Below, one piece after another: positions 20,856 through 50,533 of a stretch of 64,000 bases of DNA (within the stretch, counting starts at the first letter, position 1; every line of letters begins with the position of its first letter). The translations under genes and the position numbers were made by a program. The DNA comes from a virus, in IMG/VR virus record IMGVR_UViG_3300013132_000033, positions 35,041 to 99,040 of that record; one strand, given 5' to 3'. Below the pieces are notes generated by a model that worked only from the letters and a program-made list of their open reading frames with translations, had not been told where the DNA came from and searched no databases.

Positions 20856-23384
20856 TTAACCGCATTTAGAACTACCGCATTCTTTACACTTTTGACAACC
20901 TTCTTCATAAACGATAGCTTTACTACCACAATCTAAACATGTAGCTGTAGAAGTAGTACCATCTGGAATATATTGTTTAAGTGTTCTTGCAATAGCTTTT
21001 GTAAAACTATTTAATTCGCCATCTGTTTTTAATAGTTGCTCTACAATAAATTTAATATCTGCACCATGTCGTAATGATGTAGAAATAAGTCTTGTAATAG
21101 CTTGTTGTTCATCCGACATTGATTTAGTAATATCATTAACAATACTAAATTCATTATCAAGTGTACAAGTTAAATTGTAAACTCCACGACTTTTCTTTTT
21201 TAAAAATCCTGTTTTATATCCTGAACATAAAATATTAGGAATACAGAATACTTCGTATGGTTTACGATCTAATAAACCTACTAAAATAGTGTAAGGTTCA
21301 GCTTTTGCTTTAATATGATAAATATCTACATGCAATTCTTCAGGACGTTTAGGAGCGTCTCGATATTCAAATACATCTGCTTTTTTAGCATCTATTTGAA
21401 CTAGTACTCCTGTACGACATCCATCTCTATAAATAGTTGTACCTTTTAAACCTTTTTTCCACGATTCAGTATAAATAGTTGCAACTTCATCTACTGTAAC
21501 TTCGTTAGGTAAATTAATTGTACTACTTATACTATGTGTAGTATATTTTTGAATTATACCTTGAATTTCAACACGTTTAGTCCAATCTATATCATTAGCA
21601 GTTGATTCGTACCAAGGTGATAGTGCAAATAAACTTTGTATTTCATCATTAGACATTGCTTGAATTATTTCACAAGCAGTATCATAAGGAGTACTTGTAA
21701 ATACACTATACCAATTAATAAATTTAGGATGCACTACAGGATATTCCATCCAAGTATCACCATTTTGATCTGTAAAATCAACACGTACTCCAGAATCTCC
21801 TGGATTTACTTTTTTTCTCCTCATATAACCCCAATTAAACAATGGTTCTAATCCGCTAGTTGTTTGTGTGAGGATACTTACGGAACCTGTTGGGGCAACT
21901 GTTGAAAATGATACATTACGCCTGCCTTGTTCAATCATTCGTAATACTTCAGGATAAAAGTTATCAACTAACATTTGGTAAAATTGATTTTTACCTTTAA
22001 TTGATGTTATTTTATCTTTGTTATCACGTACAATATCAAATTCAGCATTAGCATCAAATCCTATAAACGCACCATATTGCTCTGCCATATTAATAGAAGC
22101 ATTTAACTCAGCTTTAAACTTAGTTTTCATTACTTCTTCAATAATTGATAGTGCTTCATTAGAATCGTATTTAATTCTTAAAGCGGCAAGCATATCACCT
22201 AAACCAGTAAATCCGCAACCTGTACGTCTACCAGATTTTGTAATGTACCTGATATTTTCCCATAGACTATATTCAGTATTATAGATAGACGGATCATCGC
22301 AATTAACACGATCATTATCAATTTTATCTAAAATTCTGTTTATATGTTCTACTTCAAGATCAATTACACCATCAGCTAATACTTGTTGATTATACGACAT
22401 TTCATATAATTTCTGATAGTCAATACGAGCATCTTTAGTAAAAGGATTATTTACAAATGAATATAAATTTAACGCTATTAAACGACAAGCATCATATTTA
22501 CCCATAAAGATTTCTCCGCATGGATTTGTAGTGATTCCTTTATATTCAGGATATACAGTATCGGGAGAATAATCCCAATGCTTATCAATAAATATAATTC
22601 CTGGTTCGGCAGACGCCCAAGCTGCTTGAATAATTTGATCATAAATAGCTTTAGCGTTTACTTTTTTTGTATAAACAGTTATGTTGTCTACATTAAATTG
22701 TTCATAATTGTCAGAAGCATTTTTTAATACTTCATCATTATCATAATCACACGGCCATCGAAGTACATAATCTTCATTATTAGTAACTGCTTTCATAAAA
22801 TCATCGCGAAGCATTACACTAATATTAGCACCAGTTACTTTAGTAAGATCTTTTTTAATGTTTATAAAATGTTCAACATCAGGATGTCGTACATCTATTG
22901 AAATCATTAAAGCACCCCTACGTCCATTTTGAGCAACTTCTCTAGTACTATTAGAGTACCTATCCATAAAAGATACAGCTCCTGTCGATGATCCTGCAGC
23001 ATTTGTAACTGGAGAATTAGCCGGCCTAAGTGTAGAAATATCAATACCTACACCACCACGTCGTTTCATTAACTGAACTAATTCTTCATCTTTACGCATA
23101 ATACCTGAATAAGAATCATGAGGCTGACCAACTACAAAACAATTAGATAAACTAGCTATTTTGTAATTTTTACCTAATGTAGCCATTATACTACCTTGAG
23201 GAATAATGTATTTAAAATGATCAAACATAACCATTATTTCATCATATGAAAGTTTAGTAACACGAGCAAATTCTCGTGCCATTCTTTCATGCATATCTTT
23301 AGGCGTAACATCCGCCTTATCAGAATATTTACCTTGCCATACTGACATGGCAAGTTCATCATTATTAAAATATGCTTTTAACAT
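20856..23384 (-). CDS. nrdJ: Class II (adenosylcobalamin-dependent) ribonucleotide reductase
   Basis: SNCFV, RRGA, TNPCGE, APTGS and C-terminal CxxC...EGCxxCxxCGxSKC; no beta subunit gene nearby. Confidence 0.9.
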   Translation of the reverse strand: MLKAYFNNDELAMSVWQGKYSDKADVTPKDMHERMAREFARVTKLSYDEIMVMFDHFKYIIPQGSIMATLGKNYKIASLSNCFVVGQPHDSYSGIMRKDEELVQLMKRRGGVGIDISTLRPANSPVTNAAGSSTGAVSFMDRYSNSTREVAQNGRRGALMISIDVRHPDVEHFINIKKDLTKVTGANISVMLRDDFMKAVTNNEDYVLRWPCDYDNDEVLKNASDNYEQFNVDNITVYTKKVNAKAIYDQIIQAAWASAEPGIIFIDKHWDYSPDTVYPEYKGITTNPCGEIFMGKYDACRLIALNLYSFVNNPFTKDARIDYQKLYEMSYNQQVLADGVIDLEVEHINRILDKIDNDRVNCDDPSIYNTEYSLWENIRYITKSGRRTGCGFTGLGDMLAALRIKYDSNEALSIIEEVMKTKFKAELNASINMAEQYGAFIGFDANAEFDIVRDNKDKITSIKGKNQFYQMLVDNFYPEVLRMIEQGRRNVSFSTVAPTGSVSILTQTTSGLEPLFNWGYMRRKKVNPGDSGVRVDFTDQNGDTWMEYPVVHPKFINWYSVFTSTPYDTACEIIQAMSNDEIQSLFALSPWYESTANDIDWTKRVEIQGIIQKYTTHSISSTINLPNEVTVDEVATIYTESWKKGLKGTTIYRDGCRTGVLVQIDAKKADVFEYRDAPKRPEELHVDIYHIKAKAEPYTILVGLLDRKPYEVFCIPNILCSGYKTGFLKKKSRGVYNLTCTLDNEFSIVNDITKSMSDEQQAITRLISTSLRHGADIKFIVEQLLKTDGELNSFTKAIARTLKQYIPDGTTSTATCLDCGSKAIVYEEGCQKCKECGSSKCG

Positions 23385-23412
23385 ATTGAAAGGATTAAAT
23401 GTGAATTTAAAT

Positions 23413-23550
23413 TTATTTTTTAAGTTTTTTAACTAAACGAAAGCCAAGAAAAGTAAAACGATGATTTTTCTCATAGTAAACACGTACATTTATTTTACAA
23501 ACTTCAATAACAGTACCATAAGAACCACCATAAATAAAAATATTATCCAT
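23413..23550 (-). CDS. Cassette 12: MDNIFIYGGSYGTVIEVCKINVRVYYEKNHRFTFLGFRLVKKLKK
   Basis: Manual translation, 45 aa; 8-nt overlap with cassette 11; AT-rich core. Confidence 0.85.
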   Translation of the reverse strand: MDNIFIYGGSYGTVIEVCKINVRVYYEKNHRFTFLGFRLVKKLKK

Positions 23551-23683
23551 GTTTTAATGTTTTAATTAAACGGAACCCCAAGCCGCCGTAGCGGTAGTCG
23601 GGCGTGTCGCCGCTGCGATCCGCCACCCGGCAGTACTGCGGGTAGCCGTACCACGACCCGCCGCGAATATACTTATAATTCAT
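23543..23683 (-). CDS. Cassette 11: MNYKYIRGGSWYGYPQYCRVADRSGDTPDYRYGGLGFRLIKTLKHG
   Basis: Manual translation, 46 aa; TAATG overlap; core about 74% GC (70 of 95 nt by hand count). Confidence 0.88.
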   Translation of the reverse strand: MNYKYIRGGSWYGYPQYCRVADRSGDTPDYRYGGLGFRLIKTLKHG

Positions 23684-23817
23684 TATTTCAGTTTTTTAAT
23701 TAAACGAAATCCTAAGACTTTGTAGCGGTGATCCAGCTCGTCTAAGTACTGAAAATCGGGCAAGCAACCGATTGCTAGGCTACCATAGCTACCACCACGA
23801 ATATACTTATAATTCAT
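23683..23817 (-). CDS. Cassette 10: MNYKYIRGGSYGSLAIGCLPDFQYLDELDHRYKVLGFRLIKKLK
   Basis: Manual translation, 44 aa; ATGA overlap. Confidence 0.85.
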   Translation of the reverse strand: MNYKYIRGGSYGSLAIGCLPDFQYLDELDHRYKVLGFRLIKKLK

Positions 23818-23954
23818 GTTTTAACTGTTTTAATAAGTCTAAACCCAACATAATTACAACAATATTGTTGATGACTCCACAATCGATCTGATGATTTACA
23901 CGCTAGATTATTACTAATCCACGATCCACCATAATTAATAAGATAATTTTTCAT
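23814..23954 (-). CDS. Cassette 9: MKNYLINYGGSWISNNLACKSSDRLWSHQQYCCNYVGFRLIKTVKT
   Basis: Manual translation, 46 aa; ATGA overlap. Confidence 0.85.
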   Translation of the reverse strand: MKNYLINYGGSWISNNLACKSSDRLWSHQQYCCNYVGFRLIKTVKT

Positions 23955-24091
23955 GATTTTAATGATTTAGTTAAACGAAAGCCAATGTATTGTGTCCTGA
24001 ATGACGGTCGATAAGTTGTGCGAAAATCAGTACGGCAAAATTTTAGATTAAAATTATCCCAACAACCTCCAAAAATAATAAATGTATTCAT
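23951..24091 (-). CDS. Cassette 8: MNTFIIFGGCWDNFNLKFCRTDFRTTYRPSFRTQYIGFRLTKSLKS
   Basis: Manual translation, 46 aa; ATGA overlap. Confidence 0.85.
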   Translation of the reverse strand: MNTFIIFGGCWDNFNLKFCRTDFRTTYRPSFRTQYIGFRLTKSLKS

Positions 24092-24231
24092 GATTTTAAT
24101 ATTTTAATTAATCGAAATCCAACATACAAATATTTGTAAATTGCTTTATTTCTAACATGTTCTGATGAACGATCAACTATTAAACAATTTTGATGATAAA
24201 CACCTGTTCCTTTTATAGTTATTTGGTTCAT
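24088..24231 (-). CDS. Cassette 7: MNQITIKGTGVYHQNCLIVDRSSEHVRNKAIYKYLYVGFRLIKILKS
   Basis: Manual translation, 47 aa; ATGA overlap; most divergent unit. Confidence 0.8.
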   Translation of the reverse strand: MNQITIKGTGVYHQNCLIVDRSSEHVRNKAIYKYLYVGFRLIKILKS

Positions 24232-24365
24232 AATTTTAATGATTTAGTTAAACGAAATCCTAAAGCGTTAGCATGATAATCCAATATACTAAGATTGCGA
24301 TAAACTGTAAGACAACCGTAGTTAAAACTGCTACATCCACCGCCGCGAATGTTAAAATATTTTTA
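24228..24365 (-). pseudogene. Cassette 6 lacking its start codon: (*)KYFNIRGGGCSSFNYGCLTVYRNLSILDYHANALGFRLTKSLKL
   Basis: The junction reads TGTAA where other units have TAATG, so TAA sits where ATG should be; the rest of the frame is intact. Confidence 0.7.
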
Positions 24366-24499
24366 CATTTTAATGTTTTAATTAGACGAAAACCAACTAT
24401 GTTGCTACGACACTCATGTACACCGATGTCACGATATAATACTCGACAACGCTCGGGAACGTTAATCCAGCTACCGCTACAAAGAATAAAGGTATTCAT
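24260..24499 (-). CDS. Cassette 5: MNTFILCSGSWINVPERCRVLYRDIGVHECRSNIVGFRLIKTLK plus a 35-aa read-through tail
   Basis: The expected stop at 24365-24367 is TGT, so the ORF runs out of frame through cassette 6 (79 aa in the ORF track). Confidence 0.75.
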   Translation of the reverse strand: MNTFILCSGSWINVPERCRVLYRDIGVHECRSNIVGFRLIKTLKCKNILTFAAVDVAVLTTVVLQFIAILVYWIIMLTL

Positions 24500-24633
24500 T
24501 ATTTCAGTTTTTTAATTAAACGGAAGCCAATGCTGAAGTTGCGGAAGTCCGAATCGTCCCAGCCCCGAAACGCTACCCGGCAGTACTCCGGGGAGCGGTT
24601 CCAACTACCTCCAACAATATTAAAGTATTTCAT
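24499..24633 (-). CDS. Cassette 4: MKYFNIVGGSWNRSPEYCRVAFRGWDDSDFRNFSIGFRLIKKLK
   Basis: Manual translation, 44 aa; TAATG overlap; GC-rich core. Confidence 0.88.
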   Translation of the reverse strand: MKYFNIVGGSWNRSPEYCRVAFRGWDDSDFRNFSIGFRLIKKLK

Positions 24634-24767
24634 TATTTTAATGTTTTAATTAAGCGAAAGCCCAAAAAGTTGAAGCGGCGGTCCGGCCCGCTGATGAAGC
24701 GATCCGATGCGCGGCAGAACCTGGCAGTGTTGAGCCAGCCGCCGCTAAAAACTACAAATGTATTCAT
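24633..24767 (-). CDS. Cassette 3: MNTFVVFSGGWLNTARFCRASDRFISGPDRRFNFLGFRLIKTLK
   Basis: Manual translation, 44 aa; TAATG overlap; GC-rich core. Confidence 0.88.
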   Translation of the reverse strand: MNTFVVFSGGWLNTARFCRASDRFISGPDRRFNFLGFRLIKTLK

Positions 24768-24901
24768 TATTTTAATGTTTTAATTAAGCGAAAGCCGAGA
24801 TGGCTGAAGCGGTAGTCCGGCCCGTAGAAGTTGCGATACGAAGCGCAGCAGTACACGGCATTGATGACCCAGCTGCCGCCTTTTATAATAAAGTATTTCA
24901 T
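24767..24901 (-). CDS. Cassette 2: MKYFIIKGGSWVINAVYCCASYRNFYGPDYRFSHLGFRLIKTLK
   Basis: Manual translation, 44 aa; TAATG overlap; GC-rich core with NNC codons. Confidence 0.88.
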   Translation of the reverse strand: MKYFIIKGGSWVINAVYCCASYRNFYGPDYRFSHLGFRLIKTLK

Positions 24902-25032
24902 TATTTAAGTTTTTTGATTAATCGAAAACCAAGATATTTTTCGCAATATCTTAATTTATCATAACTAGATATTGTTATACGGCAGTTTGTAATACTATTA
25001 TAACTACCGCCTTTAATTATAATTTGTTTCAT
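24901..25032 (-). CDS. Cassette 1: MKQIIIKGGSYNSITNCRITISSYDKLRYCEKYLGFRLIKKLK
   Basis: Manual translation, 43 aa; AT-rich core. Confidence 0.85.
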   Translation of the reverse strand: MKQIIIKGGSYNSITNCRITISSYDKLRYCEKYLGFRLIKKLK

Positions 25033-25053
25033 TGTCAAGTAGTGTTAAAATTT

Positions 25054-25083
25054 AAAAAGGGGGCTGCTGTTAACAACCCCCTT
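25054..25083 (-). terminator. Intrinsic terminator-like hairpin between the scaffold gene and the cassette array
   Basis: Minus strand GGGGGTTGTT-AAC-AGCAGCCCCC followed by TTTTT. Confidence 0.65.
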
Positions 25084-25089
25084 AAAAAA

Positions 25090-25698
25090 TTATTTAGGTA
25101 GTGGCATGTTTTGATCTACGGACTGAGGAATTCGTTTGTTACGATAAAAATCAATAAAGTTTTGATTTGTAACGTTTGGAACAATAGGTCCATAGACACT
25201 ATTAGTCCATTCCCACACGTTGCCGCTCATATCATACAGACCAATTGAATTTGGTTTTTTCAAACCAACAGGATGTGTTTCTCCGCCGGAATTTCCATAA
25301 TACCATGCAACTTCGTCAATATTATCAGAACCTGCGTATTTATGTGAAGTCATTTCATGACCTCCCCTTGCAGCATATTCCCACTGTTCTTCTGTTGGTA
25401 ATTCATATTTATACTTAGGATCTAACTCATTAAGTTTTGCAATAAATTTTTTGATATCGTTGTAAGATATATTTTCAACAGGTCGATTTTCCCAATCAGG
25501 ACGATTTTTAAAATACGATGGATTTTCACCCATCACATCTACCCATTGTTTTTGGGTAACAAGAAATGTTGTCATTTCAAAATTTTCAGCAATCTCAACC
25601 ATTTTGTTACGATTGGGACCGAAAAGAAATTTACCAGCAAGTACTTTTATAGTGCTGAAATTTGGGAGTGTTGGTTTAAAACCTTTTGGTTTAGCCAT
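25090..25698 (-). CDS. FGE-sulfatase (C-type-lectin-fold) domain protein lacking the C-terminal RGGSW...GFR segment
   Basis: Has VTQKQW..VMGENPS.F, PVENIS, LPTEEQWEYAARGG, VAWY..NS..THPVG.K.PN..GLYDMSGNVWEW; an unrelated tail follows, with no GGSW or GFR. Confidence 0.9.
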   Translation of the reverse strand: MAKPKGFKPTLPNFSTIKVLAGKFLFGPNRNKMVEIAENFEMTTFLVTQKQWVDVMGENPSYFKNRPDWENRPVENISYNDIKKFIAKLNELDPKYKYELPTEEQWEYAARGGHEMTSHKYAGSDNIDEVAWYYGNSGGETHPVGLKKPNSIGLYDMSGNVWEWTNSVYGPIVPNVTNQNFIDFYRNKRIPQSVDQNMPLPK

Positions 25699-25710
25699 TT
25701 TGAAATTTTT

Positions 25711-26648
25711 TTAAAATAGTGAATGTTTTGGTTTAAATTTAACTACTTCGTTATTTGCTTGAACGATGTAGTATTGATAATTAATATTATAATCTTTTGG
25801 ATTAGTACTTTGAACTTGATTTAATAATTGACTATAATATGATTTTCCTTTTTGAGGATGCGCATTGAGATATTCATACGATCCTTTTGAATATACTTTT
25901 TTAAATATCATACCTGTTTTAGATATGATATATCTTATTGTCTTTGGTAATTTAGTTACAGTATTATTATTTGTGATACCTATAAAAGAACTATCTTGTT
26001 TAGCCCTAACGCCTATACAATAATCAAAAATATTATCACCATTAATAATTGTATCTTCTACAGGTGTGTTATACAAAAAATAATTATAAATAGCTTTTCT
26101 AACTATTAATTCAGATTTATTTTTATGTAACGGTAAATTTTCAAACTCAAAACTACCTTTACATTTTGCTTTACCATTAGTATAAATTGCAATATAATTG
26201 TTGACATCTCGAATAATCATTTTACTATAATAAGCGTATTCTAATTGAAGTCTAGTTATAGACTCCCATTGTTTACAAATATTATAATATTCTGATTCAT
26301 GTTGTTTTCTAAGTTTACAAGTTAAACCGTCTGTATTTATTTGAATAAGTGTCAAATCAGGTATTTCCATTAATTGTTCAGCTAACATTGTTAACATTAA
26401 CTGACCATTAATAGTTGTAGATAATGTATATTTAAAATCACGTAACCAAGAAGTTTCTTCATTACTTTTACCGTAGACACTATTAGCAGCTTCTTTATAA
26501 CCGGCAACAATAACAAAATCTCCATTTTTACCTTTTGCTTTTTCACGTAATCTTACATCTACAATATCTTCTTTGTAAACTCTACTAAATTCTTCTCCTA
26601 AATGTTCAGGATATAAATTATTTACTGTAGCTATACTTGGGTATAGTG
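25711..26648 (-). CDS. polB: Family B DNA polymerase, exon 2
   Basis: Frame open from 26648: (S)LYPSI completes motif A; KEAANSVYGK is motif B and QINTDGL is motif C. Confidence 0.88.
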
Positions 26649-26666
26649 CATACCCTCTGAATATTT

Positions 26667-27461
26667 CTATTCAGTTTGGACTTTATCATCAATTAAAACC
26701 TTATTCCACCAATATCCATACATACTTGGTTTTTCACCACTACATACTGCATAAATATTGTGTCGTTTGTAATCAGGGTTTTGCTCTAACAATTCATAAA
26801 CGGTATTCCATCTTTTTATTAAAGTTTGTTTATCTTTAGTATATTGATCTATATAATATTTAGTTATTTTTTGAGATTGCTTTAATATATCCTGTTTTTT
26901 AATTTCAGGATTATTTTCATATTTTTGTTTTCTAGTATATACACCTTTTACTTGAATTTCATATGGAACTTTTTTTCTATTACCTTCTTTAAAAGTTTTT
27001 AATATCTTTTCTGACATTATTTTCTTTTGTTCTTCTGTCCATTTATTATTAAAATTTGGATTGAGTTCTCCTTTCATTCTTTTTTTTAATAATTCTCTTG
27101 TTTTTTCATGAACAAAAGATTGGGAAGAAGAATCTTGTCTAAGATTATATCCATAATTTAAATCAGTAGTATTGTAATACTTCATCCAATATAATTCTCT
27201 GTCTTTAATATTATTTTGAAAATTTTCTGAATGAATATCTATTTCTTCTAAAATTTCATATATAAAATTATTTTTTCCATATTTATGCCAAGAATTAATT
27301 AAATATCTATTACAATCTTTAGATTTACTAGTTAACCCGCAAATATGATTTGCAATTCTATTATTAATATTAATTGATTTTCCAATATACCTTTTTCCGT
27401 TTATTATATTGATAATGCAATAAATTCCCGATTTGTTTTTAAGTTGTTTGTTTATCTTCAT
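26667..27461 (-). CDS. Intron-encoded GIY-YIG homing endonuclease
   Basis: SGIYCI.N..NGKRYIGKS..I..R...H, RELYW and GYN, with a NUMOD-like C-terminal region. Confidence 0.9.
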   Translation of the reverse strand: MKINKQLKNKSGIYCIINIINGKRYIGKSININNRIANHICGLTSKSKDCNRYLINSWHKYGKNNFIYEILEEIDIHSENFQNNIKDRELYWMKYYNTTDLNYGYNLRQDSSSQSFVHEKTRELLKKRMKGELNPNFNNKWTEEQKKIMSEKILKTFKEGNRKKVPYEIQVKGVYTRKQKYENNPEIKKQDILKQSQKITKYYIDQYTKDKQTLIKRWNTVYELLEQNPDYKRHNIYAVCSGEKPSMYGYWWNKVLIDDKVQTE

Positions 27462-27512: not shown

Positions 27513-27740
27513 TATTTTAACAACTTTAACAAAACTTTAACGTTTTAATGCTTCCTGTTAAGTCTCTGAACCTTATTCTCATATTTTTGTGAGAATCTTG
27601 GCTGCGGATTGACCAATACTTTCTCTTTTTACTATACTCAATTGATTAGATTGACCACTATATACATCACTGTCATAGTTTAGTAAGAAAGTCTCTAAGG
27701 TTATTCCCGCAATTTAAGAAGTTTTAGTTGCGCCACTTTA

Positions 27741-28635
27741 ACGCAACATCGGCATCAAGAATTATCCAATCATTGTCAGCATTTACAATTTCAGTATTTA
27801 CACTACCATGTATACCGCCTTTACCATAATCAAATTGAAATCCTTTATAAATAAAAGATTTATTAAATTTTTCTGTTGGTTCAATATTTTTATCTTTAAA
27901 CCAATTTAATAAACCTTGTAATTCTATATTTTTAAATTGTATATACGGAAAAAGTATATCTTTTACATATACATTTGTACGTATAGTTTGTTTTTTACTA
28001 ATTTCTTTTTTATTAGCTTTAACTGCTTTACAGTATAAATCTAACATTAATTCTGATCCTATTTTACTATTACTAGCATTTATAAAATTTATACCATATT
28101 TGCTAGTTAAACTTATTCTTAACTGTAATTCTTTTTCATACAGTTTAAATAATTGATCTGTAGCATTTACATCATTAATACAATATTTTATAGTAGCATC
28201 AGCTTCTTCTCTTGAATTAACATGACCATGATAAGGCATATCTTCAAGATTTGGCCAATCAACCATAAATTCACACCATTTTAAACTTACCATTCTGTTT
28301 TTATTATCAAGATGTAATATCTTGTAAATATCAACATTAAATATAGTTCGTTTGTATATAGGAACAATTATTTCTTCTTGTTCAATTATTCTTACTGTAT
28401 ATTCATGAATTTGTTTAGCAGTTAACTTTCTTAATTTTAACAGTTCGATAATTTGACCATCAAAATTTAAATTGTTATATCCGCGTAAAGAATTAACAGT
28501 TTTTAAAAAAGCTACTAATTCATTATACTCATTTTTCCAATCACTTATTTCAAAGATTTTATAATTATCTTCATTTTTAAATACAGCACAAAAGAAATTA
28601 GGTAGAGTTTCTACATCATAAGTCCAATTTGCCAT
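27741..28635 (-). CDS. polB: Family B DNA polymerase, exon 1 (3'-5' exonuclease and start of motif A)
   Basis: YDVET, GYNNLNFD and YCINDV exonuclease motifs; GGIHG...ILDADVA. The spliced product is 610 aa. Confidence 0.88.
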
Positions 28636-32899: not shown

Positions 32900-33043
32900 T
32901 TAAAATCTAATTCTATGCTGCCATCAAAGGCTCTATGAATTAGTAACAGTCTAATACCACACCAAACCCTTTCACGGGTACGGGGTCTTGGTTATACCGC
33001 GTTCTCCGGCATGCTCGGAGCGATTATATGGTGTGGATATTCG

Positions 33044-33127
33044 TACCCGGAACAGGACTTGAACCTGTACAACCTTTTGGGTCAAGGGATTTTAAGTCCC
33101 TCGTGTCTACCATTTCACCACCCGGGC
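33044..33127 (-). tRNA. tRNA-Leu(TAA)
   Basis: Full cloverleaf; anticodon arm AGGGA-CTTAAAA-TCCCT; long variable arm. Confidence 0.92.
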
Positions 33128-33134
33128 ATTAATG

Positions 33135-33217
33135 TGGGTAAGAAGGGATTCGAACCCTCAATCCATAATGGCAACAGATTTTAAGTCTGTCGTGTATACC
33201 AGTTCCACCACTTACCC
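33135..33217 (-). tRNA. tRNA-Leu(TAA), second distinct copy
   Basis: Full cloverleaf; anticodon arm ACAGA-CTTAAAA-TCTGT. Confidence 0.92.
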
Positions 33218-34633: not shown

Positions 34634-35068
34634 TTACTGTTTCAATTTAAAGTAAACGCGTTTGTTTACTTCCCCTACGTAAGGGTGTTCTACTACTACG
34701 TATACTTCTGAAGGTGCTCCGGTGCTAGCGTAGAGCTGCCAATACGCTCCTTGAGTGTATACTTCATGGATCGCATTAGCTAGTTCAAAGCTGTAATCTT
34801 TCCCGTCTAACATCACTGGCGTAATTAGTATGCCAGTATTGTAGTTAAGGATTTGTTCTTCAAAATTTCCGTAACTATCAGAATGATATTTGAGAACTCT
34901 TTTGTTTAAGTCAAACTGAAAAATTACGTTGTCGTAATTTGCAGTCAAAACTTGAAGTCGGTTATCAACACTGTTGACAACATCTGTCTGGATATTAAAT
35001 CCAGATTGAGCGTTTACAGTTATTACTGCAAACATTAAAATACAAAATGCTGCTATGATTTTACGCAT
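34634..35068 (-). CDS. Secreted hypothetical protein
   Basis: Signal peptide ending VNA|Q. Confidence 0.6.
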   Translation of the reverse strand: MRKIIAAFCILMFAVITVNAQSGFNIQTDVVNSVDNRLQVLTANYDNVIFQFDLNKRVLKYHSDSYGNFEEQILNYNTGILITPVMLDGKDYSFELANAIHEVYTQGAYWQLYASTGAPSEVYVVVEHPYVGEVNKRVYFKLKQ

Positions 35069-40711: not shown

Positions 40712-40967
40712 GTTGTTGTGAGTTTAGAGATGAATAATTTTTTGCCTTAACATTATATAATGTCAAGGCTTTTATTATTACGTAAAAAATAGATTGGGTA
40801 GATACGTTTAAGTATGTTTACCCAATCTACTTTATAATCCTGTATCCCAGCTAAATACCATTGCCAGGAGTGACAACAAAAGCAACAGACTAAGAGCCAT
40901 TTTGGCTAACATCTGTAAAAATTTATTTTCTTTCATGATTTTGTTTTTAAAGAATGTACATTATTCA

Positions 40968-41282
40968 CTACAACGCCACATAGCCCCTGTTAAGGAGCGT
41001 TTGCTTGGCGTCATCGCCAGAGTCCGTCAACTTCAACCGGGTTTCCCCGCCTGCATTTACCGTTTCAACAACCGACCAGTTACGGTCGATGTTCTTGCCA
41101 ATCTCGGCGCGCTCAGACGCCTTGATTGACAAATACACGTTCTCCGCCTCTTCCGGGTTGGAAGAGTTAAGAAACGTGCAGAAGAGATAGCCCGCCGCAT
41201 TTTTGCGGATTGGGCTCACGAGGTCGTAACCCTTCGTGGACATGTAGTCCTTGATGGGTGTCTTAACAAAACTATTTTCCAT
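40968..41282 (-). CDS. Hypothetical protein, GC-rich
   Basis: 104-aa ORF visibly richer in GC than its flanks. Confidence 0.6.
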   Translation of the reverse strand: MENSFVKTPIKDYMSTKGYDLVSPIRKNAAGYLFCTFLNSSNPEEAENVYLSIKASERAEIGKNIDRNWSVVETVNAGGETRLKLTDSGDDAKQTLLNRGYVAL

Positions 41283-46793: not shown

Positions 46794-49119
46794 AAATATA
46801 GATACATGGAAAGTAAAAATTCCTAAACTTCATCCTGATAATGAAAAATTTAGTAAAATATGGTCATTATATACAAAACATTGTATAGAAGGATTATGGG
46901 GATTTGATTCAGGAGGTTGGCGTTTTATGCCAGGAACTTTATTTTTTTATGGTAATTTCTTTTCAATTCTTGACATAGATAAAAAACAAAAAGTTCGCCG
47001 ATACGTAAGACCTGACATTCGAGATATAGATTGGATGTTACATTATGCTTATCTTGAATGTCAAGGTTTTTCGGGTTGGAGAGATGATGATGAATATACA
47101 TCTAATTATGATGTATTAAAATGTCAAAGTATAGCAGATACAAATAATCCAAATTTAGTAAGTTCTAAAGGTAAACTTAAAACTTTTATAGCACCTAGAG
47201 AAAATATTAAAAAGTTACATGATAAAGTTAAAGGTCCTCCTTTATATGAAAATCCAGCTAAAAATCTTTTAGTATTTGGATCACGTGGCGGAGGTAAATC
47301 ATTTACTTTTTCTGGTATATCTGGACACCATGTAACATTTGATGGATTAAAGTATTTTACACAAGAAGATTTTGATAATCCTCCTACTATTGAAGTATGT
47401 GTAGGTTCCGGTAATACTGATAAATCATCTGAATTTTGTACTAAAATTGAAGAAGGTTTAAAAGCATTTGGAACAGATAATGATTTAGGGGTATGGGGTA
47501 AAGCTGATAGAGGTGATGATGATTATACTCCCAACCCTTTTTATCGAGATTGGGAAGGTTCTATTGGAGTAGGCAATAAAAAGAATCCGTTTAGATATGA
47601 ATATTCAGCTAAAATAAATAATCGATGGATTCATGGTTTAGGTACTAAAACTAAACTTATACATGTAAACTATTCTGATAAAAAACAAGGTGGTGAAGCA
47701 GCTGCAGCAGGTGGACGTTATGTTTTAATATTATATGAAGAAATTGGTTTAATGTCTAATATTGTTGATGCTTGGTTTTCTAATGTGGGTACTGTAACAG
47801 ATCCTAATGGTAATCAATTTGGAGTACAAGTTGGTATTGGTACATCAGGTAATATTGAATTAGTACAGCAATCAAAAAAGATTTTTAATAATCCTAGAGA
47901 TTATAATTGTTTAGCTTATAATGATATTTGGGAAAATAATGGTGAAATAGGTTTTTTCTTATCTGCTTATTTAACTAACTCTCAATTTAAAGATAAAAAT
48001 GGAAATACTGATGTAGAAAAAGCTTTACAATTTTATATGGACAGGCGTATTGAAGCTGGTAAATCAACTGATCCTGAAGCATTACGTAATGAAAAAATGA
48101 ATTATCCGTTGATACCATCTGATATGTGGCATTCATCTAAAGGACATCACTTTCCAGTAATGGAATTAATGGATAGAGAAAAAGAACTTGTAAAATTTGG
48201 TAAATATAGAACTATTGGTCAACCTGTAAATTTACTTTGGGATTCTACTAGACAATATGGTGTAAAATCAGAACCTGATTTAAATGCTGAACCTTTTTAT
48301 GAGTTTCCTTATAATCACACAAATACTAAATTAGATGGTTCTATTTTAATATATCAAGAACCTGAATTAGTAAATGGCGAAATACCTCCAGATATGTATT
48401 TCTTTGTATTAGATCCTTATGTTGCAGATGATGTTGATGAAGGCGGATCGTTAGGTGCTTTTTATGGTTTTATTAACCCTAAATATGGAGCGCCTTATAA
48501 TGGAGGAAGTATGGTATGTTCTTACGTTGGTAAACACCCTAAAGGACGTGATGGTTATTATGAAAATATTGAAAAGATTATTGCATATTATGGTAATAAT
48601 AATAGAAGTTTATGGTATGAAGCAAACCGAGGTGATTCTGTAAGAGGTTATTTTTTAAGACGTAACAAGTTAAATTTATTAGCGTTAAGTCCTACTAGAG
48701 AAAAAGGTAGTTCGGCCTACGAAAAGAAAGTATTAAGTTATGGTATTATGCTAAACGGTATAGAACAAAAACTTGAAATGATTGGTGATGCTTCAGATTA
48801 TTTAATGCAACAAGTGATTTATAATAATAAAGAAATACGATTTGTTGAAACATTACCTGATATATTTTTAATACGTCAAATGTTAGCATTTGAGTTAAAA
48901 AAACATAAAAACTTTGATGCTGTTTCTGCTTTTATTATGGCACCTTTTGTAATGAAAGAATTAAGACACTTACAAATCAGAGAAGAAGAAAAGAAACATA
49001 GACATAATCCTCTAGCGGCATTATCTATGAATCCTAATATCTTTAGACCTGATGATATACAACAAAAAATAAAACGTTTTCATGAACAATATACAACCTA
49101 CAACGAAAATAATCAATGA
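46747..49119 (+). CDS. terL: Terminase large subunit
   Basis: GSRGGGKS Walker A, LYEEIG Walker B, GTSG, and nuclease motifs LDPY...EANRG...NFDAVSA. Confidence 0.88.
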   Translation: MIQNLDLLKKDLIKIENIDTWKVKIPKLHPDNEKFSKIWSLYTKHCIEGLWGFDSGGWRFMPGTLFFYGNFFSILDIDKKQKVRRYVRPDIRDIDWMLHYAYLECQGFSGWRDDDEYTSNYDVLKCQSIADTNNPNLVSSKGKLKTFIAPRENIKKLHDKVKGPPLYENPAKNLLVFGSRGGGKSFTFSGISGHHVTFDGLKYFTQEDFDNPPTIEVCVGSGNTDKSSEFCTKIEEGLKAFGTDNDLGVWGKADRGDDDYTPNPFYRDWEGSIGVGNKKNPFRYEYSAKINNRWIHGLGTKTKLIHVNYSDKKQGGEAAAAGGRYVLILYEEIGLMSNIVDAWFSNVGTVTDPNGNQFGVQVGIGTSGNIELVQQSKKIFNNPRDYNCLAYNDIWENNGEIGFFLSAYLTNSQFKDKNGNTDVEKALQFYMDRRIEAGKSTDPEALRNEKMNYPLIPSDMWHSSKGHHFPVMELMDREKELVKFGKYRTIGQPVNLLWDSTRQYGVKSEPDLNAEPFYEFPYNHTNTKLDGSILIYQEPELVNGEIPPDMYFFVLDPYVADDVDEGGSLGAFYGFINPKYGAPYNGGSMVCSYVGKHPKGRDGYYENIEKIIAYYGNNNRSLWYEANRGDSVRGYFLRRNKLNLLALSPTREKGSSAYEKKVLSYGIMLNGIEQKLEMIGDASDYLMQQVIYNNKEIRFVETLPDIFLIRQMLAFELKKHKNFDAVSAFIMAPFVMKELRHLQIREEEKKHRHNPLAALSMNPNIFRPDDIQQKIKRFHEQYTTYNENNQ

Positions 49120-50533
49120 TGACTTACAATTTATCATTGATGGTATAAAACTAGCTTCTGATGTAGTTATATCTACAATGGGAGGTTCAGGTAAAAATAT
49201 TATTCTTAGTAATAATAAAGATTTAAACTTTACTAAAGATGGTGTATCAGTAGCTAAAGCTATTTCGCTACCCGATCCTCAAAACAATATTGGAGCTAAA
49301 TTACTTATTAACGCAGCTAATAAAACTGTAGAACAATGTGGTGATGGTACTACATCTACTATTTTATTCGTACGTTCTTTAATTGATTCTATTTATATTC
49401 AAGATATTACAGATGTTAATAAATTTATTGAAGATCTTGATGATTTTGTAGAAAAATTTAAAACTATTATTACACAACAATCTAAACCTGTAGATAATAT
49501 TGATGATATTTACAAGATTGCACTTACATCTAGTAAATCACCAAAGATTGCAGCTTTAATTAAAGATATTTATTCTAAAACTGGTTTTAAAGCAAATATT
49601 TCATTAGAAGAATCTAAAGTATCTGATAAAACGTATTATGATTTAATTGAAGGTTTAAATTTTGAATCTGGTATGGTTAATACACGATTTGCAAATCAAG
49701 AAAATGGTAATTGTACTCTTGAAAGTGCTACGTTAATTCTTGAAGAAGAACTTGTATCATCACCTCAATCTTATGAAAAGATTTTAGGATACTGTTTAGA
49801 AAATGATAATGCTATTGTAATTATGGCGCCTATGTTTTCAGATGCATTTGTTCGATTTGCACTAACTAATAAAATGCAAAATGGGTTAAAAATATGTTTA
49901 GTTAAAACTCCTGGGTATGGTAATTACAGTAAAGAAAATTATAAAGATATAATGTCATTTGCTAATGATGATGGTACAGTAAATAAAATTGTAATTTCTC
50001 AACATGATTTTACAATTTATAATAAACCTGAACTTACTAAACTTAATCGTCGTTTAAATCAATTACAAAAACTTGCTGATAATAGTACTGAAATTTATGA
50101 TATTGAAGATTATACAAATCGAATTCATAGGTTAAATCAAACTGGTGCTATTATTTATGTTGGCGGAGTTACTGAAAAAAATCTAAAAGAAGAATATGAT
50201 CGAATTGAAGATGCTATTGGTGCAGTGTCAGTAGCTATTAAGAATGGTTATGTTCGAGGAGCTGGTGTTGAACTAGTGCAAATTATACCTTTGTTTAAAG
50301 ATAGTCCTATTTTTAAATTAATTAAAGACGTCCTGTATAAACCCTACAGTCAGATTTTAAAAAATGCTAATATTACAAGAACTTTAAAGACAGATATTCC
50401 GTACAATGTACGATCTAAATCCTACGATGAAAACATTATTGATCCGTCAAGTGTAGTTATTAGTTCCTTGACAAATGCAGTATCATTATTTAAACTTTTG
50501 ATTAACACTTCGTATGTTGTACATAACGAGTAA
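49082..50533 (+). CDS. groEL: GroEL/Cpn60-like chaperonin
   Basis: TMGGSGKN, TKDGVSVAK, GDGTTS, KTPGYG, VGGVTE, RIEDA, GAGVEL and IIDP. Confidence 0.88.
   Translation: MNNIQPTTKIINDDLQFIIDGIKLASDVVISTMGGSGKNIILSNNKDLNFTKDGVSVAKAISLPDPQNNIGAKLLINAANKTVEQCGDGTTSTILFVRSLIDSIYIQDITDVNKFIEDLDDFVEKFKTIITQQSKPVDNIDDIYKIALTSSKSPKIAALIKDIYSKTGFKANISLEESKVSDKTYYDLIEGLNFESGMVNTRFANQENGNCTLESATLILEEELVSSPQSYEKILGYCLENDNAIVIMAPMFSDAFVRFALTNKMQNGLKICLVKTPGYGNYSKENYKDIMSFANDDGTVNKIVISQHDFTIYNKPELTKLNRRLNQLQKLADNSTEIYDIEDYTNRIHRLNQTGAIIYVGGVTEKNLKEEYDRIEDAIGAVSVAIKNGYVRGAGVELVQIIPLFKDSPIFKLIKDVLYKPYSQILKNANITRTLKTDIPYNVRSKSYDENIIDPSSVVISSLTNAVSLFKLLINTSYVVHNE

Follow-up and report, generated by a model that had tools for sequence, protein, structure and literature searches.

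Tandem mini-genes for variable C-type-lectin tips on a phage, four with cores resembling adenine-mutagenised copies of Saprospiraceae templates

The scaffold gene and the cassette array

The phage record IMGVR_UViG_3300013132_000033 is 99,040 bp long and linear, has a CheckV completeness of about 90% and terminates within an open frame of 1557 aa. The window, i.e., the whole stretch of 64,000 nucleotides that was analysed, comprises positions 35,041–99,040 of this record, and the coordinates of the locus given here are window positions. The locus belongs to the replication module and lies between the genes for DNA polymerase and ribonucleotide reductase, not next to tail genes. It includes a gene on the minus strand (25090..25698) encoding a 202 aa protein of the FGE/C-type-lectin type, which matches the Pfam FGE-sulfatase model (PF03781) with 102.8 bits (cut-off 23.3) at model positions 5–194 of 255. 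The protein is truncated, lacking the C-terminal GGxW...GFR segment, and consists of the FGE domain alone, with neither an effector or adaptor domain nor a STAND NTPase at its N terminus. Among solved structures, TvpA (PDB 2Y3C), a DGR variable protein of Treponema, is nearest to this scaffold by sequence (E = 5.6e-19). The exact scaffold protein is recorded on four contigs from two sources, and two variants that are 90% or more identical to it occur on ENA contigs (3.5 and 2.4 kb long).

Downstream of the scaffold gene 12 tandem units follow on the same strand, from cassette 1 (c1, 25038–24901) to cassette 12 (c12, 23550–23413). A terminator-like hairpin is located at the scaffold/array junction (25057..25083, minus strand); it consists of a 12-pair stem with a T run behind it and is the sole such site in 23300–25800. 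The Bacteroidota promoter motif TAnnTTTG occurs at chance level and was uninformative. Each mini-gene codes solely for the C-terminal, ligand-facing segment that is absent from the scaffold. Ten of the 12 units are free-standing ORFs of 44–47 aa with their own start and stop, and the start and stop codons of neighbouring units often overlap (TAATG or ATGA). The FGE domain is divided: the scaffold ends before model position 195, and 12 separate ORFs each code for positions 212–255. The c11 protein scored 24.4 bits at PF03781 positions 214–255, which is above the gathering cut-off of 23.3, while c2, c3, c4 and c9 scored 13–21 bits on the same model positions, under the cut-off.

The units, all on the minus strand, differ strongly in composition. 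Cassettes 2, 3 and 4 (24767..24901, 24633..24767 and 24499..24633) encode 44 aa each and contain GC-rich, host-like cores at 24788–24880 (GC 61%, GC3 0.84), 24654–24746 (GC 65%, GC3 0.84) and 24520–24612 (GC 61%, GC3 0.74), respectively. The fourth such core, at 23570–23665, is found in cassette 11 (23543..23683, 46 aa) and has a GC content of 72% (73% over 96 nt) and a GC3 of 0.94. Five units are AT-rich mini-genes: c1 (24901..25038; core GC 29%, GC3 0.13), which retains the GGSY...LGFR motif, c7 (24088..24231; 28%, 0.06), c8 (23951..24091; 39%, 0.25), c9 (23814..23954; 35%, 0.19) and c12 (23413..23550; 31%, 0.10), the last unit of the array. Cassette 10 (23683..23817) is of intermediate GC (core GC 48%, GC3 0.48) and has the N-terminal flank MNYKYIRGG in common with c11. 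Cassette 5 (24365..24499) is likewise intermediate (core GC 46%, GC3 0.35); its stop codon is lost (TGT) and the frame continues to 24260, giving an ORF of 79 aa (24260–24499). In our reading, its PE.CRV residues resemble those of the c4 template family. Cassette 6 (24232..24365) is degenerate and without a start codon: its GGG...LGFR frame has no ATG and is out of frame with cassette 5.

No such array of mini-ORFs was found among 79 IMG/VR loci with homologues, where each detected C-terminal motif was part of an ORF of at least 140 aa. The flank pattern had no match in IMG/VR or JGI metagenome contigs, nor had the c11 pattern in IMG/VR or the c2/c3 invariant pattern in the JGI contigs, in scans that possibly left out records close to this phage's genome. 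Three IMG/VR matches to the short c2/c3 pattern (L082–L084) were discarded as chance hits, being DNA of 67% GC with no FGE frame. A search with the c11 protein among proteins of 25–81 aa found one 64 aa ENA protein with 60% identity.

A full-length gene that could serve as an expression site for the cassettes was not found. In pilS/pilE of Neisseria and vls of Borrelia, silent cassettes are copied into one expression site by gene conversion. The phage array is functionally similar in that alternative variable segments, flanked by conserved sequence, are stored in tandem; it differs from these systems in having no full-length expression site and in the free-standing ORFs that make up 10 of its 12 units. 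The split design, in which a single scaffold goes with many tips from genes of their own, is an unreported way of building a binder library; a full-text literature search found no paper describing this arrangement.

Relatives of the cores in one Saprospiraceae genus

The first-pass annotation had described the cores of c2, c3, c4 and c11 as GC-rich inside AT-rich flanks, and this was reproduced, with 72–73% instead of about 74% for c11. The four cores (93–96 nt) have a GC content of 61–72% and a GC3 of 0.74–0.94, their flanks 7–19% GC, and 93-nt windows over the 99-kb genome have a mean GC of 30.1% (sd 6.6%). Altogether, eight patches of at least 55% GC exist in the genome and four of them are these cores. 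The host-like sequence ends precisely at the (R)GG and GFR codons, resulting in eight composition switches that are all in frame and at one pair of motifs. Another GC-rich patch (40962–41236), considered as a second host-derived piece, was rejected since it has no DNA match in Saprospiraceae; it was used as a specificity control.

DGR retrohoming is established to turn template adenines random, so that AAY codons become NNY. The differences between c2 and c3 fit this pattern and agree with the counts of the first-pass annotation: 23 bases differ, 12, 9 and 2 at codon positions 1, 2 and 3 (binomial P 0.007 against a 2:1 expectation), 17 codons differ, 15 of them non-synonymously, and the variable codons are mostly NNC/NNT.

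An unbiased scan for the c2/c3 invariant pattern, in which 185,579 species were each represented by one genome, returned a sole match. This match, in the Saprospiraceae MAG G001, is the 3′ variable repeat of a gene for a caspase-FGE protein. Cassette 2 is equal to this repeat at 73 of 93 bases, and 65 of the 93 positions are invariant among c2, c3 and the repeat, just four of these being A. Cassette 3 has 82% identity to G001:C205:10939-11030. G001 contains two DGRs, and the template repeat of the second (G001:C173:59494-59585) fits c4: the two differ at 18 of 31 A sites and at five of 62 other sites (p = 3.8e-7), with three of the five non-A mismatches in boundary codons. The further template that had been implied by c4 belongs to a separate template lineage. 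For c11 the corresponding template repeat was found directly 3′ of an RT gene in G891, a genome of the same genus as G001 (G891:C476:493-585; differences at 18 of 28 A sites and three of 65 other sites, p = 1.6e-9). Compared with their nearest host templates, c2 differs at 14 of 26 A sites and nine of 67 other sites, and c3 at 18 of 26 and 13 of 67. The third position of the AAY codons is retained in 12 of 13 cases in c4 and in 10 of 11 in c11, and the non-A sites of these two cores are 92–95% identical to the host templates, including synonymous third positions and invariant codons. At least three template lineages are behind the cores (c2/c3, c4 and c11).

The nearest DNA relatives of the cores are Saprospiraceae (Bacteroidota) DGR variable and template repeats, several of which adjoin an RT gene, and the templates that had been reconstructed by restoring variable codons to AAY are similar to real template repeats of this family. 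As predicted, mismatches are strongly concentrated at template adenines; they are not confined to these sites, and 3 (c11), 5 (c4) and 9–13 (c2, c3) non-adenine mismatches to the closest sampled templates were counted, the exact templates not being found among the sampled genomes. Cognate variable and template repeats in the hosts, taken as control, show 11–19 changes at A sites and 0–1 others. Templates from different species differ mutually at just 8–37 of 93 positions, so that part of the homology of the cores may stem from conservation within a template family.

Core matches at E ≤ 1e-6 were present in 44 of 114 genomes (39%) of one Saprospiraceae genus, in 14 of 401 (3.5%) of the family and in two of 401 (stated as 0.25%) of the phylum (genus versus family, p = 8e-21). 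The GC-richer Bacteroidota donor suggested earlier would belong to a single genus. The tRNA-Leu(UAA) of the phage has 93% identity to its counterpart in G001, and the match in G891, at a contig end, reaches 95% over 76 nt; besides G001, only one of 400 genomes in the phylum sample had a match at E ≤ 1e-18, with 84% identity. Judged by these sequences, the genus of G001 is the likely host of the phage.

The host genes with matching repeats encode TIR-FGE, caspase-FGE, nSTAND1-FGE and EAD11-FGE proteins and have a 3′-terminal variable repeat, and RT, a template repeat and an HRDC-type accessory gene (a 146-aa protein encoded upstream of RT) are located nearby. These genes are putative DGR-diversified immune or antigen sensors, and the phage scaffold has 50% identity over 133 aa to their FGE domains. 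Cellular DGRs of multicellular and filamentous bacteria diversify FGE-type C-type-lectin sensors of conflict systems, and for these elements trans action on remote targets has been described (Dore et al., 2024; PMC10907252). The host genes and elements found here agree with that description, whereas the phage copies are without effector or NTPase domain, consist of the variable segment alone and are located on a virus replicon without RT or template.

DGR machinery and flanking sequences

DGRs are understood as self-contained, with RT, template and targets on one replicon. The first-pass annotation had noted that neither RT nor template is present in the window, and this now extends to the whole 99,040-bp record. 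No RT was found there with Pfam RVT_1, for which control genomes were positive, or at E ≤ 10 with the host DGR RT as protein query. A blastn-short comparison of the 12 cassettes with the whole record found no template repeat and no second copy of a core beyond the array, where merely the AT-rich flanks gave chance matches of 10–20 nt. The run of AAY codons typical of template repeats, which amounts to 10–13 in the hosts, was by eye seen in no cassette. The RT and the template repeat of a complete DGR are both missing from the phage replicon as recorded; these negatives cover a record that is about 90% complete, and a phage DGR in the remaining 10% or so is thus conceivable. In two complete phages with related PolB (92.6 and 95.1 kb), RT and FGE genes are both missing; these phages were dropped as a source of homologous arrays, as they contain none. 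One of five phage records with a homologous FGE gene does have an RT.

Host pairs of variable and template repeats share 21–24 nt at the 5′ side and 7–20 nt at the 3′ side beyond the core. The phage cassettes show no template homology at the 5′ or at the 3′ (IMH) side, where the sequence changes abruptly to unrelated AT-rich DNA; the end of the core falls within the first bases of the region that is the IMH in the host. Sequences beside the cores fold no better than shuffled ones (z −0.3 to +0.5), so that no BPP-1-like hairpin or cruciform was detected.

In the DGR of Bordetella phage BPP-1 (mtd, avd, TR, brt), the phage itself supplies RT, Avd and TR, which lie next to the one target, a tail-fibre gene with IMH and hairpin (PMC5758913). 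Like BPP-1, the phage described here carries a CLec-fold binder with NNY tip codons, which here too would derive from AAY by adenine mutagenesis; in contrast to BPP-1 it has no RT, TR or hairpin, and the locus lies between replication genes. The TvpA DGR of Treponema denticola includes an HRDC accessory gene and has seven non-adjacent targets (PMC5758913). TvpA is of the same FGE-type CLec fold with variable residues in a C-terminal segment, but it is a single polypeptide, and its targets share IMH template-flanking homology and a genome with the RT, whereas the phage fold is split and lacks IMH-side homology.

Origin and possible function of the cassettes

Taken together, we consider it probable that the cores of c2, c3, c4 and c11 are adenine-mutagenised copies of at least three Saprospiraceae-type templates, set in phage-native AT-rich frames on a phage without its own DGR. 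The first-pass annotation had proposed that the phage captures DGR-diversified variable regions or mutagenised cDNAs, or that host DGRs act in trans; the results support this proposal and fit either route. Transfer would have run from host to phage, because the composition and the templates exist on the host side only. Host variable-repeat DNA or DGR cDNA may have entered by recombining at the codons of the conserved motifs, where only 9–15 nt of homology would be available; alternatively, the flanks of the 12 units might have been homogenised later. Canonical IMH-directed retrohoming is a less likely way of entry, since the missing 5′ and 3′ IMH-side homology speaks against it. The AT-rich cassettes would be older or native versions.

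The cassettes might instead be live remote targets, with host DGR RTs and template RNAs rewriting the phage cores in trans during infection and so re-diversifying them continually at the host's expense, which we regard as unlikely. Cassettes 2 and 3 resemble two independent adenine-mutagenised copies of one template with a common 3′ flank including a TTT codon, AAY third positions are retained in all four cores, the host-like sequence stops within the first bases of the host's IMH region, and trans action on remote targets of the same genome is known for cellular DGRs of this type (PMC10907252; PMC5758913). Ongoing rewriting is, on the other hand, difficult to reconcile with cassettes that lack the template homology flanking host targets and any hairpin beyond shuffled controls, with three to 13 non-adenine mismatches compared with 0–1 in active host pairs, and with eight of 12 cassettes that are AT-rich and without sign of rewriting.

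A conventional phage DGR, with the cassettes as its multiple targets and RT and templates either in the missing 10% of the genome or very recently lost, seems highly improbable. The linear, incomplete record ending in an open frame leaves room for it, as does the RT in one of the five records with a homologous FGE gene, and multi-target DGRs are known in phages, including crAss-like phages (PMC7290462; PMC10743442). Such a DGR would, however, have escaped two types of RT query over 99 kb, would need three distinct template lineages and would have to account for a GC3 foreign to a phage of 30% GC; moreover, the complete PolB relatives, smaller than the record itself, have neither RT nor FGE gene, and the locus is in the replication module and not by tail genes. 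More improbable still is an origin without any DGR, by duplication, diversifying selection on surface residues and chance or selected GC enrichment, or as assembly chimeras. Template adenines correspond to ligand-facing positions, and selection alone would thus also concentrate changes there; a repetitive array, in turn, invites misassembly. Against such an origin stand the identity to host templates at synonymous third positions, invariant codons and other non-A sites of c4 and c11, the retention of the template's third base in variable codons, matches that are specific to a genus and missing from the other GC-rich phage patch, the switches in frame at one pair of motifs, and the recovery of the exact scaffold protein on four contigs from two sources.

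Going by the Pfam coordinates alone (scaffold 5–194, cassettes 212–255), the mini-proteins may make good what the truncated FGE scaffold lacks, each supplying a different tip for ligand binding. The predicted product would act within the infected cell, because the locus is part of the replication module. More speculatively, and with considerable doubt, the array might be a counter-defence device: antigen-binding tips of the sensors would have been copied onto an effector-less scaffold that would be expressed from the replication module, and the predicted soluble decoys would bind the phage-derived ligand and leave the host sensors untriggered.

The arrangement is reversed compared to the usual DGR, as the phage carries the targets, or their products, and the host genus the templates. 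If the cores were captured, hypervariable binding sites would pass from cellular sensors to viruses by a new host-to-virus transfer route, and the cores would be a natural record of past sensor variants; if they are rewritten in trans, a host mutator would be exploited by a virus. Through the link to TIR, caspase and STAND sensors, the immune role that has been proposed for those DGR targets can be put to the test with a phage as their natural partner. Should the counter-defence function be true, a virus would steal and store a library of variable regions from a prokaryotic adaptive-like immune receptor.

Organization of the cassette array

The phage record is 99,040 bp long with a GC content of 30%, is rated as approximately 90% complete and contains the window as its final 64 kb. 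The scaffold gene (202 aa, 25698-25090, minus strand) is a truncated FGE gene that covers only positions 5-194 of the 255 positions of the Pfam model FGE-sulfatase. Among solved structures, its nearest relative is TvpA, a DGR variable protein (PDB 2Y3C), and it shares 50% identity over 133 aa with the FGE domains of two putative host sensor genes. The gene is followed by a terminator-like hairpin (25083-25057, minus strand) and then by a tandem array of 12 cassettes of 134-144 nt (25038 to 23413, minus strand). Every cassette encodes hxhxGGxW...C.R...R...LGFRLIK, corresponding to positions 212-255 of FGE-sulfatase. Ten of the 12 units form independent ORFs of 44-47 aa, and the stop codon of one unit and the start codon of the following frequently overlap (TAATG, ATGA). 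Since the chance of an open 44-codon frame in DNA of such composition is approximately 0.03, these ORFs appear to be under maintenance. Two units are decaying: cassette 5 (24365-24499, minus strand) carries TGT in place of the stop codon of neighbouring units, the ATG of cassette 6 (24232-24365, minus strand) has been lost, and a single 79-aa ORF therefore crosses cassette 6 out of frame.

The locus is situated between a DNA polymerase B gene, whose C-terminal exon is at 25711-26397, and a ribonucleotide reductase gene (20856-23384), which places it in the replication module; terminase, portal and capsid genes are found far away at 46-56 kb. ORFs 25711-26397 and 27724-28635 correspond to two segments of a single PHROG DNA polymerase family, C-terminal (437-654) and N-terminal (54-357), respectively, and the ORF between them (26667-27461) is consistent with the intron-split PolB of the first-pass annotation. 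A GroEL-like chaperonin gene (49082-50533, PHROG 5725, E = 5e-78) is located between the terminase large subunit and portal genes.

The cores of cassettes 2, 3, 4 and 11, measured from the GG to the GFR codons, have GC contents of 61%, 65%, 61% and 72% with a third-position GC of 0.74-0.94, while their flanks have 7-19% GC, which agrees with the GC-rich cores in AT-rich flanks described initially. The remaining cassettes contain 28%-48% GC. Windows of 93 nt have a mean GC of 30.1% genome-wide (sd 6.6%), and only eight patches in the genome reach 55%, four of which are these cores. The reported 23 differences between cassettes 2 and 3, mainly at the first two codon positions, were also found (12/9/2 by codon position) and are non-synonymous in 15 of the 17 changed codons. 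An RT was not detected in the whole record with either Pfam RVT_1 or a host DGR RT as query, nor were copies of the cores outside the array, which extends the same observation made earlier for the window.

Related repeats in Saprospiraceae DGRs

The first-pass annotation took the cores for DGR-mutagenised copies of host templates. The bases shared by cassettes 2 and 3, with N at variable positions, were used to scan 185,579 prokaryote species, each represented by one genome. The single match was the 3′ end of a gene for a 933-aa caspase-FGE protein in the Saprospiraceae MAG G001. This repeat agrees with both cassettes at 65 of 93 positions, only four of which are A, and 25 of the 28 variable positions are codon positions 1-2. 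G001 carries two DGRs, one consisting of target, HRDC-type accessory gene, RT and template repeat, the second of an RT and a template repeat adjoining an nSTAND1-FGE target. Compared with the template of the second DGR, cassette 4 differs at 18 of 31 adenines and at 5 of the 62 remaining bases (p = 3.8e-7), and the final codon and first two codons of the core account for three of these five. A search of 114 genomes of the genus of G001 gave better partners for cassette 11. In genome G891, a template repeat is located immediately 3′ of an RT gene, and cassette 11 departs from it at 18 of 28 adenines and at 3 of the 65 remaining bases (p = 1.6e-9). Cassettes 4 and 11 retain the third base of AAY template codons in 12 of 13 and 10 of 11 cases, respectively, as predicted for adenine-specific mutagenesis and not for drift in an AT-rich phage. 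Cognate host variable and template repeats, used as positive control, showed 11-19 adenine changes and 0-1 others. Thus, the host search led to Saprospiraceae DGR repeats, and the expected bias of mismatches to template adenines holds for cassettes 4 and 11. For cassettes 2 and 3 the nearest template found still has 9-13 non-adenine differences, their own template being outside the genomes sampled.

In two host DGRs (G001:C173, L090, and G268:C56, L106/L133) the RT-template unit is bracketed by an inverted repeat: the 18 nt that immediately follow the variable repeat (ccggctttacttatgagc) recur as their reverse complement immediately after the template repeat.

Likely host and entry of the cores

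Core matches (E ≤ 1e-6) were present in 44 of 114 genomes of the genus of G001 (39%), 14 of 401 of the family (3.5%) and 2 of 401 of the phylum, one being G001 itself (0.25% of the others); genus and family differ with p = 8e-21. Another GC-rich patch (40962-41236, 51-60% GC, within a minus-strand ORF of the 30% GC phage) yielded no DNA match among 400 Saprospiraceae genomes, and the core signal is thus not simply a consequence of high GC content. Two tRNA-Leu(UAA) genes of the phage lie on the minus strand at 33043-33127 and 33134-33217. The first of them shares 93% identity with tRNA-Leu of G001 and, over 76 nt, 95% with that of G891, and values for other genus members are similar; among the 400 other genomes in the phylum sample, only a single one matched it at E ≤ 1e-18 (84% identity). 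Together with the core matches, this independent likeness suggests that the host is likely a member of this genus. In several host genomes of the genus the two halves of the tRNA-Leu match are separated by 300-700 nt, suggesting that the host gene contains an intron; this may bear on the tRNA-Leu-like shells of the phage at 31603-32899.

Mutagenic homing is limited 3′ by the IMH element and 5′ by homology (PMC5758913). Homology between host targets and their templates continues beyond the core for 21-24 nt on the 5′ side and for 7-20 nt on the 3′ (IMH) side. Within the phage cassettes, host-like sequence starts at the (R)GG codons and stops at the GFR codon, with unrelated AT-rich sequence on both sides and no hairpin in the cassette flanks. 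Since the homing limits are absent around the cores, canonical retrohoming into the cassettes looks unlikely. We favour capture, in which recombination at conserved codons of the motifs would have introduced host variable DNA or DGR cDNA; the repeated flanks might have been homogenised afterwards. That host DGRs are still rewriting the phage cores is best supported by cassettes 2 and 3, which are adjacent and represent two differing adenine-mutagenised versions of one template, and we regard it as rather improbable. Much less probable still is a phage-borne DGR hidden in the tenth of the genome that the record lacks, because it would need three template lineages, the record with its 99 kb is already longer than two PolB relatives with complete genomes (92.6 and 95.1 kb), and both relatives lack RT and FGE genes.

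FGE genes in hosts and phages

Host genes with matching repeats encode TIR-FGE (genome G203), EAD11-FGE (G278), caspase-FGE (G219 and G001) and nSTAND1-FGE proteins (G001). They have the architecture of the effector-FGE targets reported for cellular DGRs of multicellular bacteria (Dore et al., 2024; PMC10907252). Such DGR-diversified FGE proteins, some of them served in trans, have been proposed to be hypermutated antigen sensors in anti-phage conflict systems (PMC10907252).

Scaffold homologues in 79 IMG/VR loci (L003-L081) are ordinary full-length FGE genes, and the split into scaffold and mini-gene array was present only in this phage among the loci retrieved. The C-terminal variable segments of the phage FGE genes contain NNY-type codons and exceed the GC content of their loci by 0.19 on average. 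No RT was found within 6 kb in the 79 loci, or in four of five whole records checked, one of these four being rated 100% complete (88 kb). RT-less, DGR-marked FGE genes thus seem to be common in phages.
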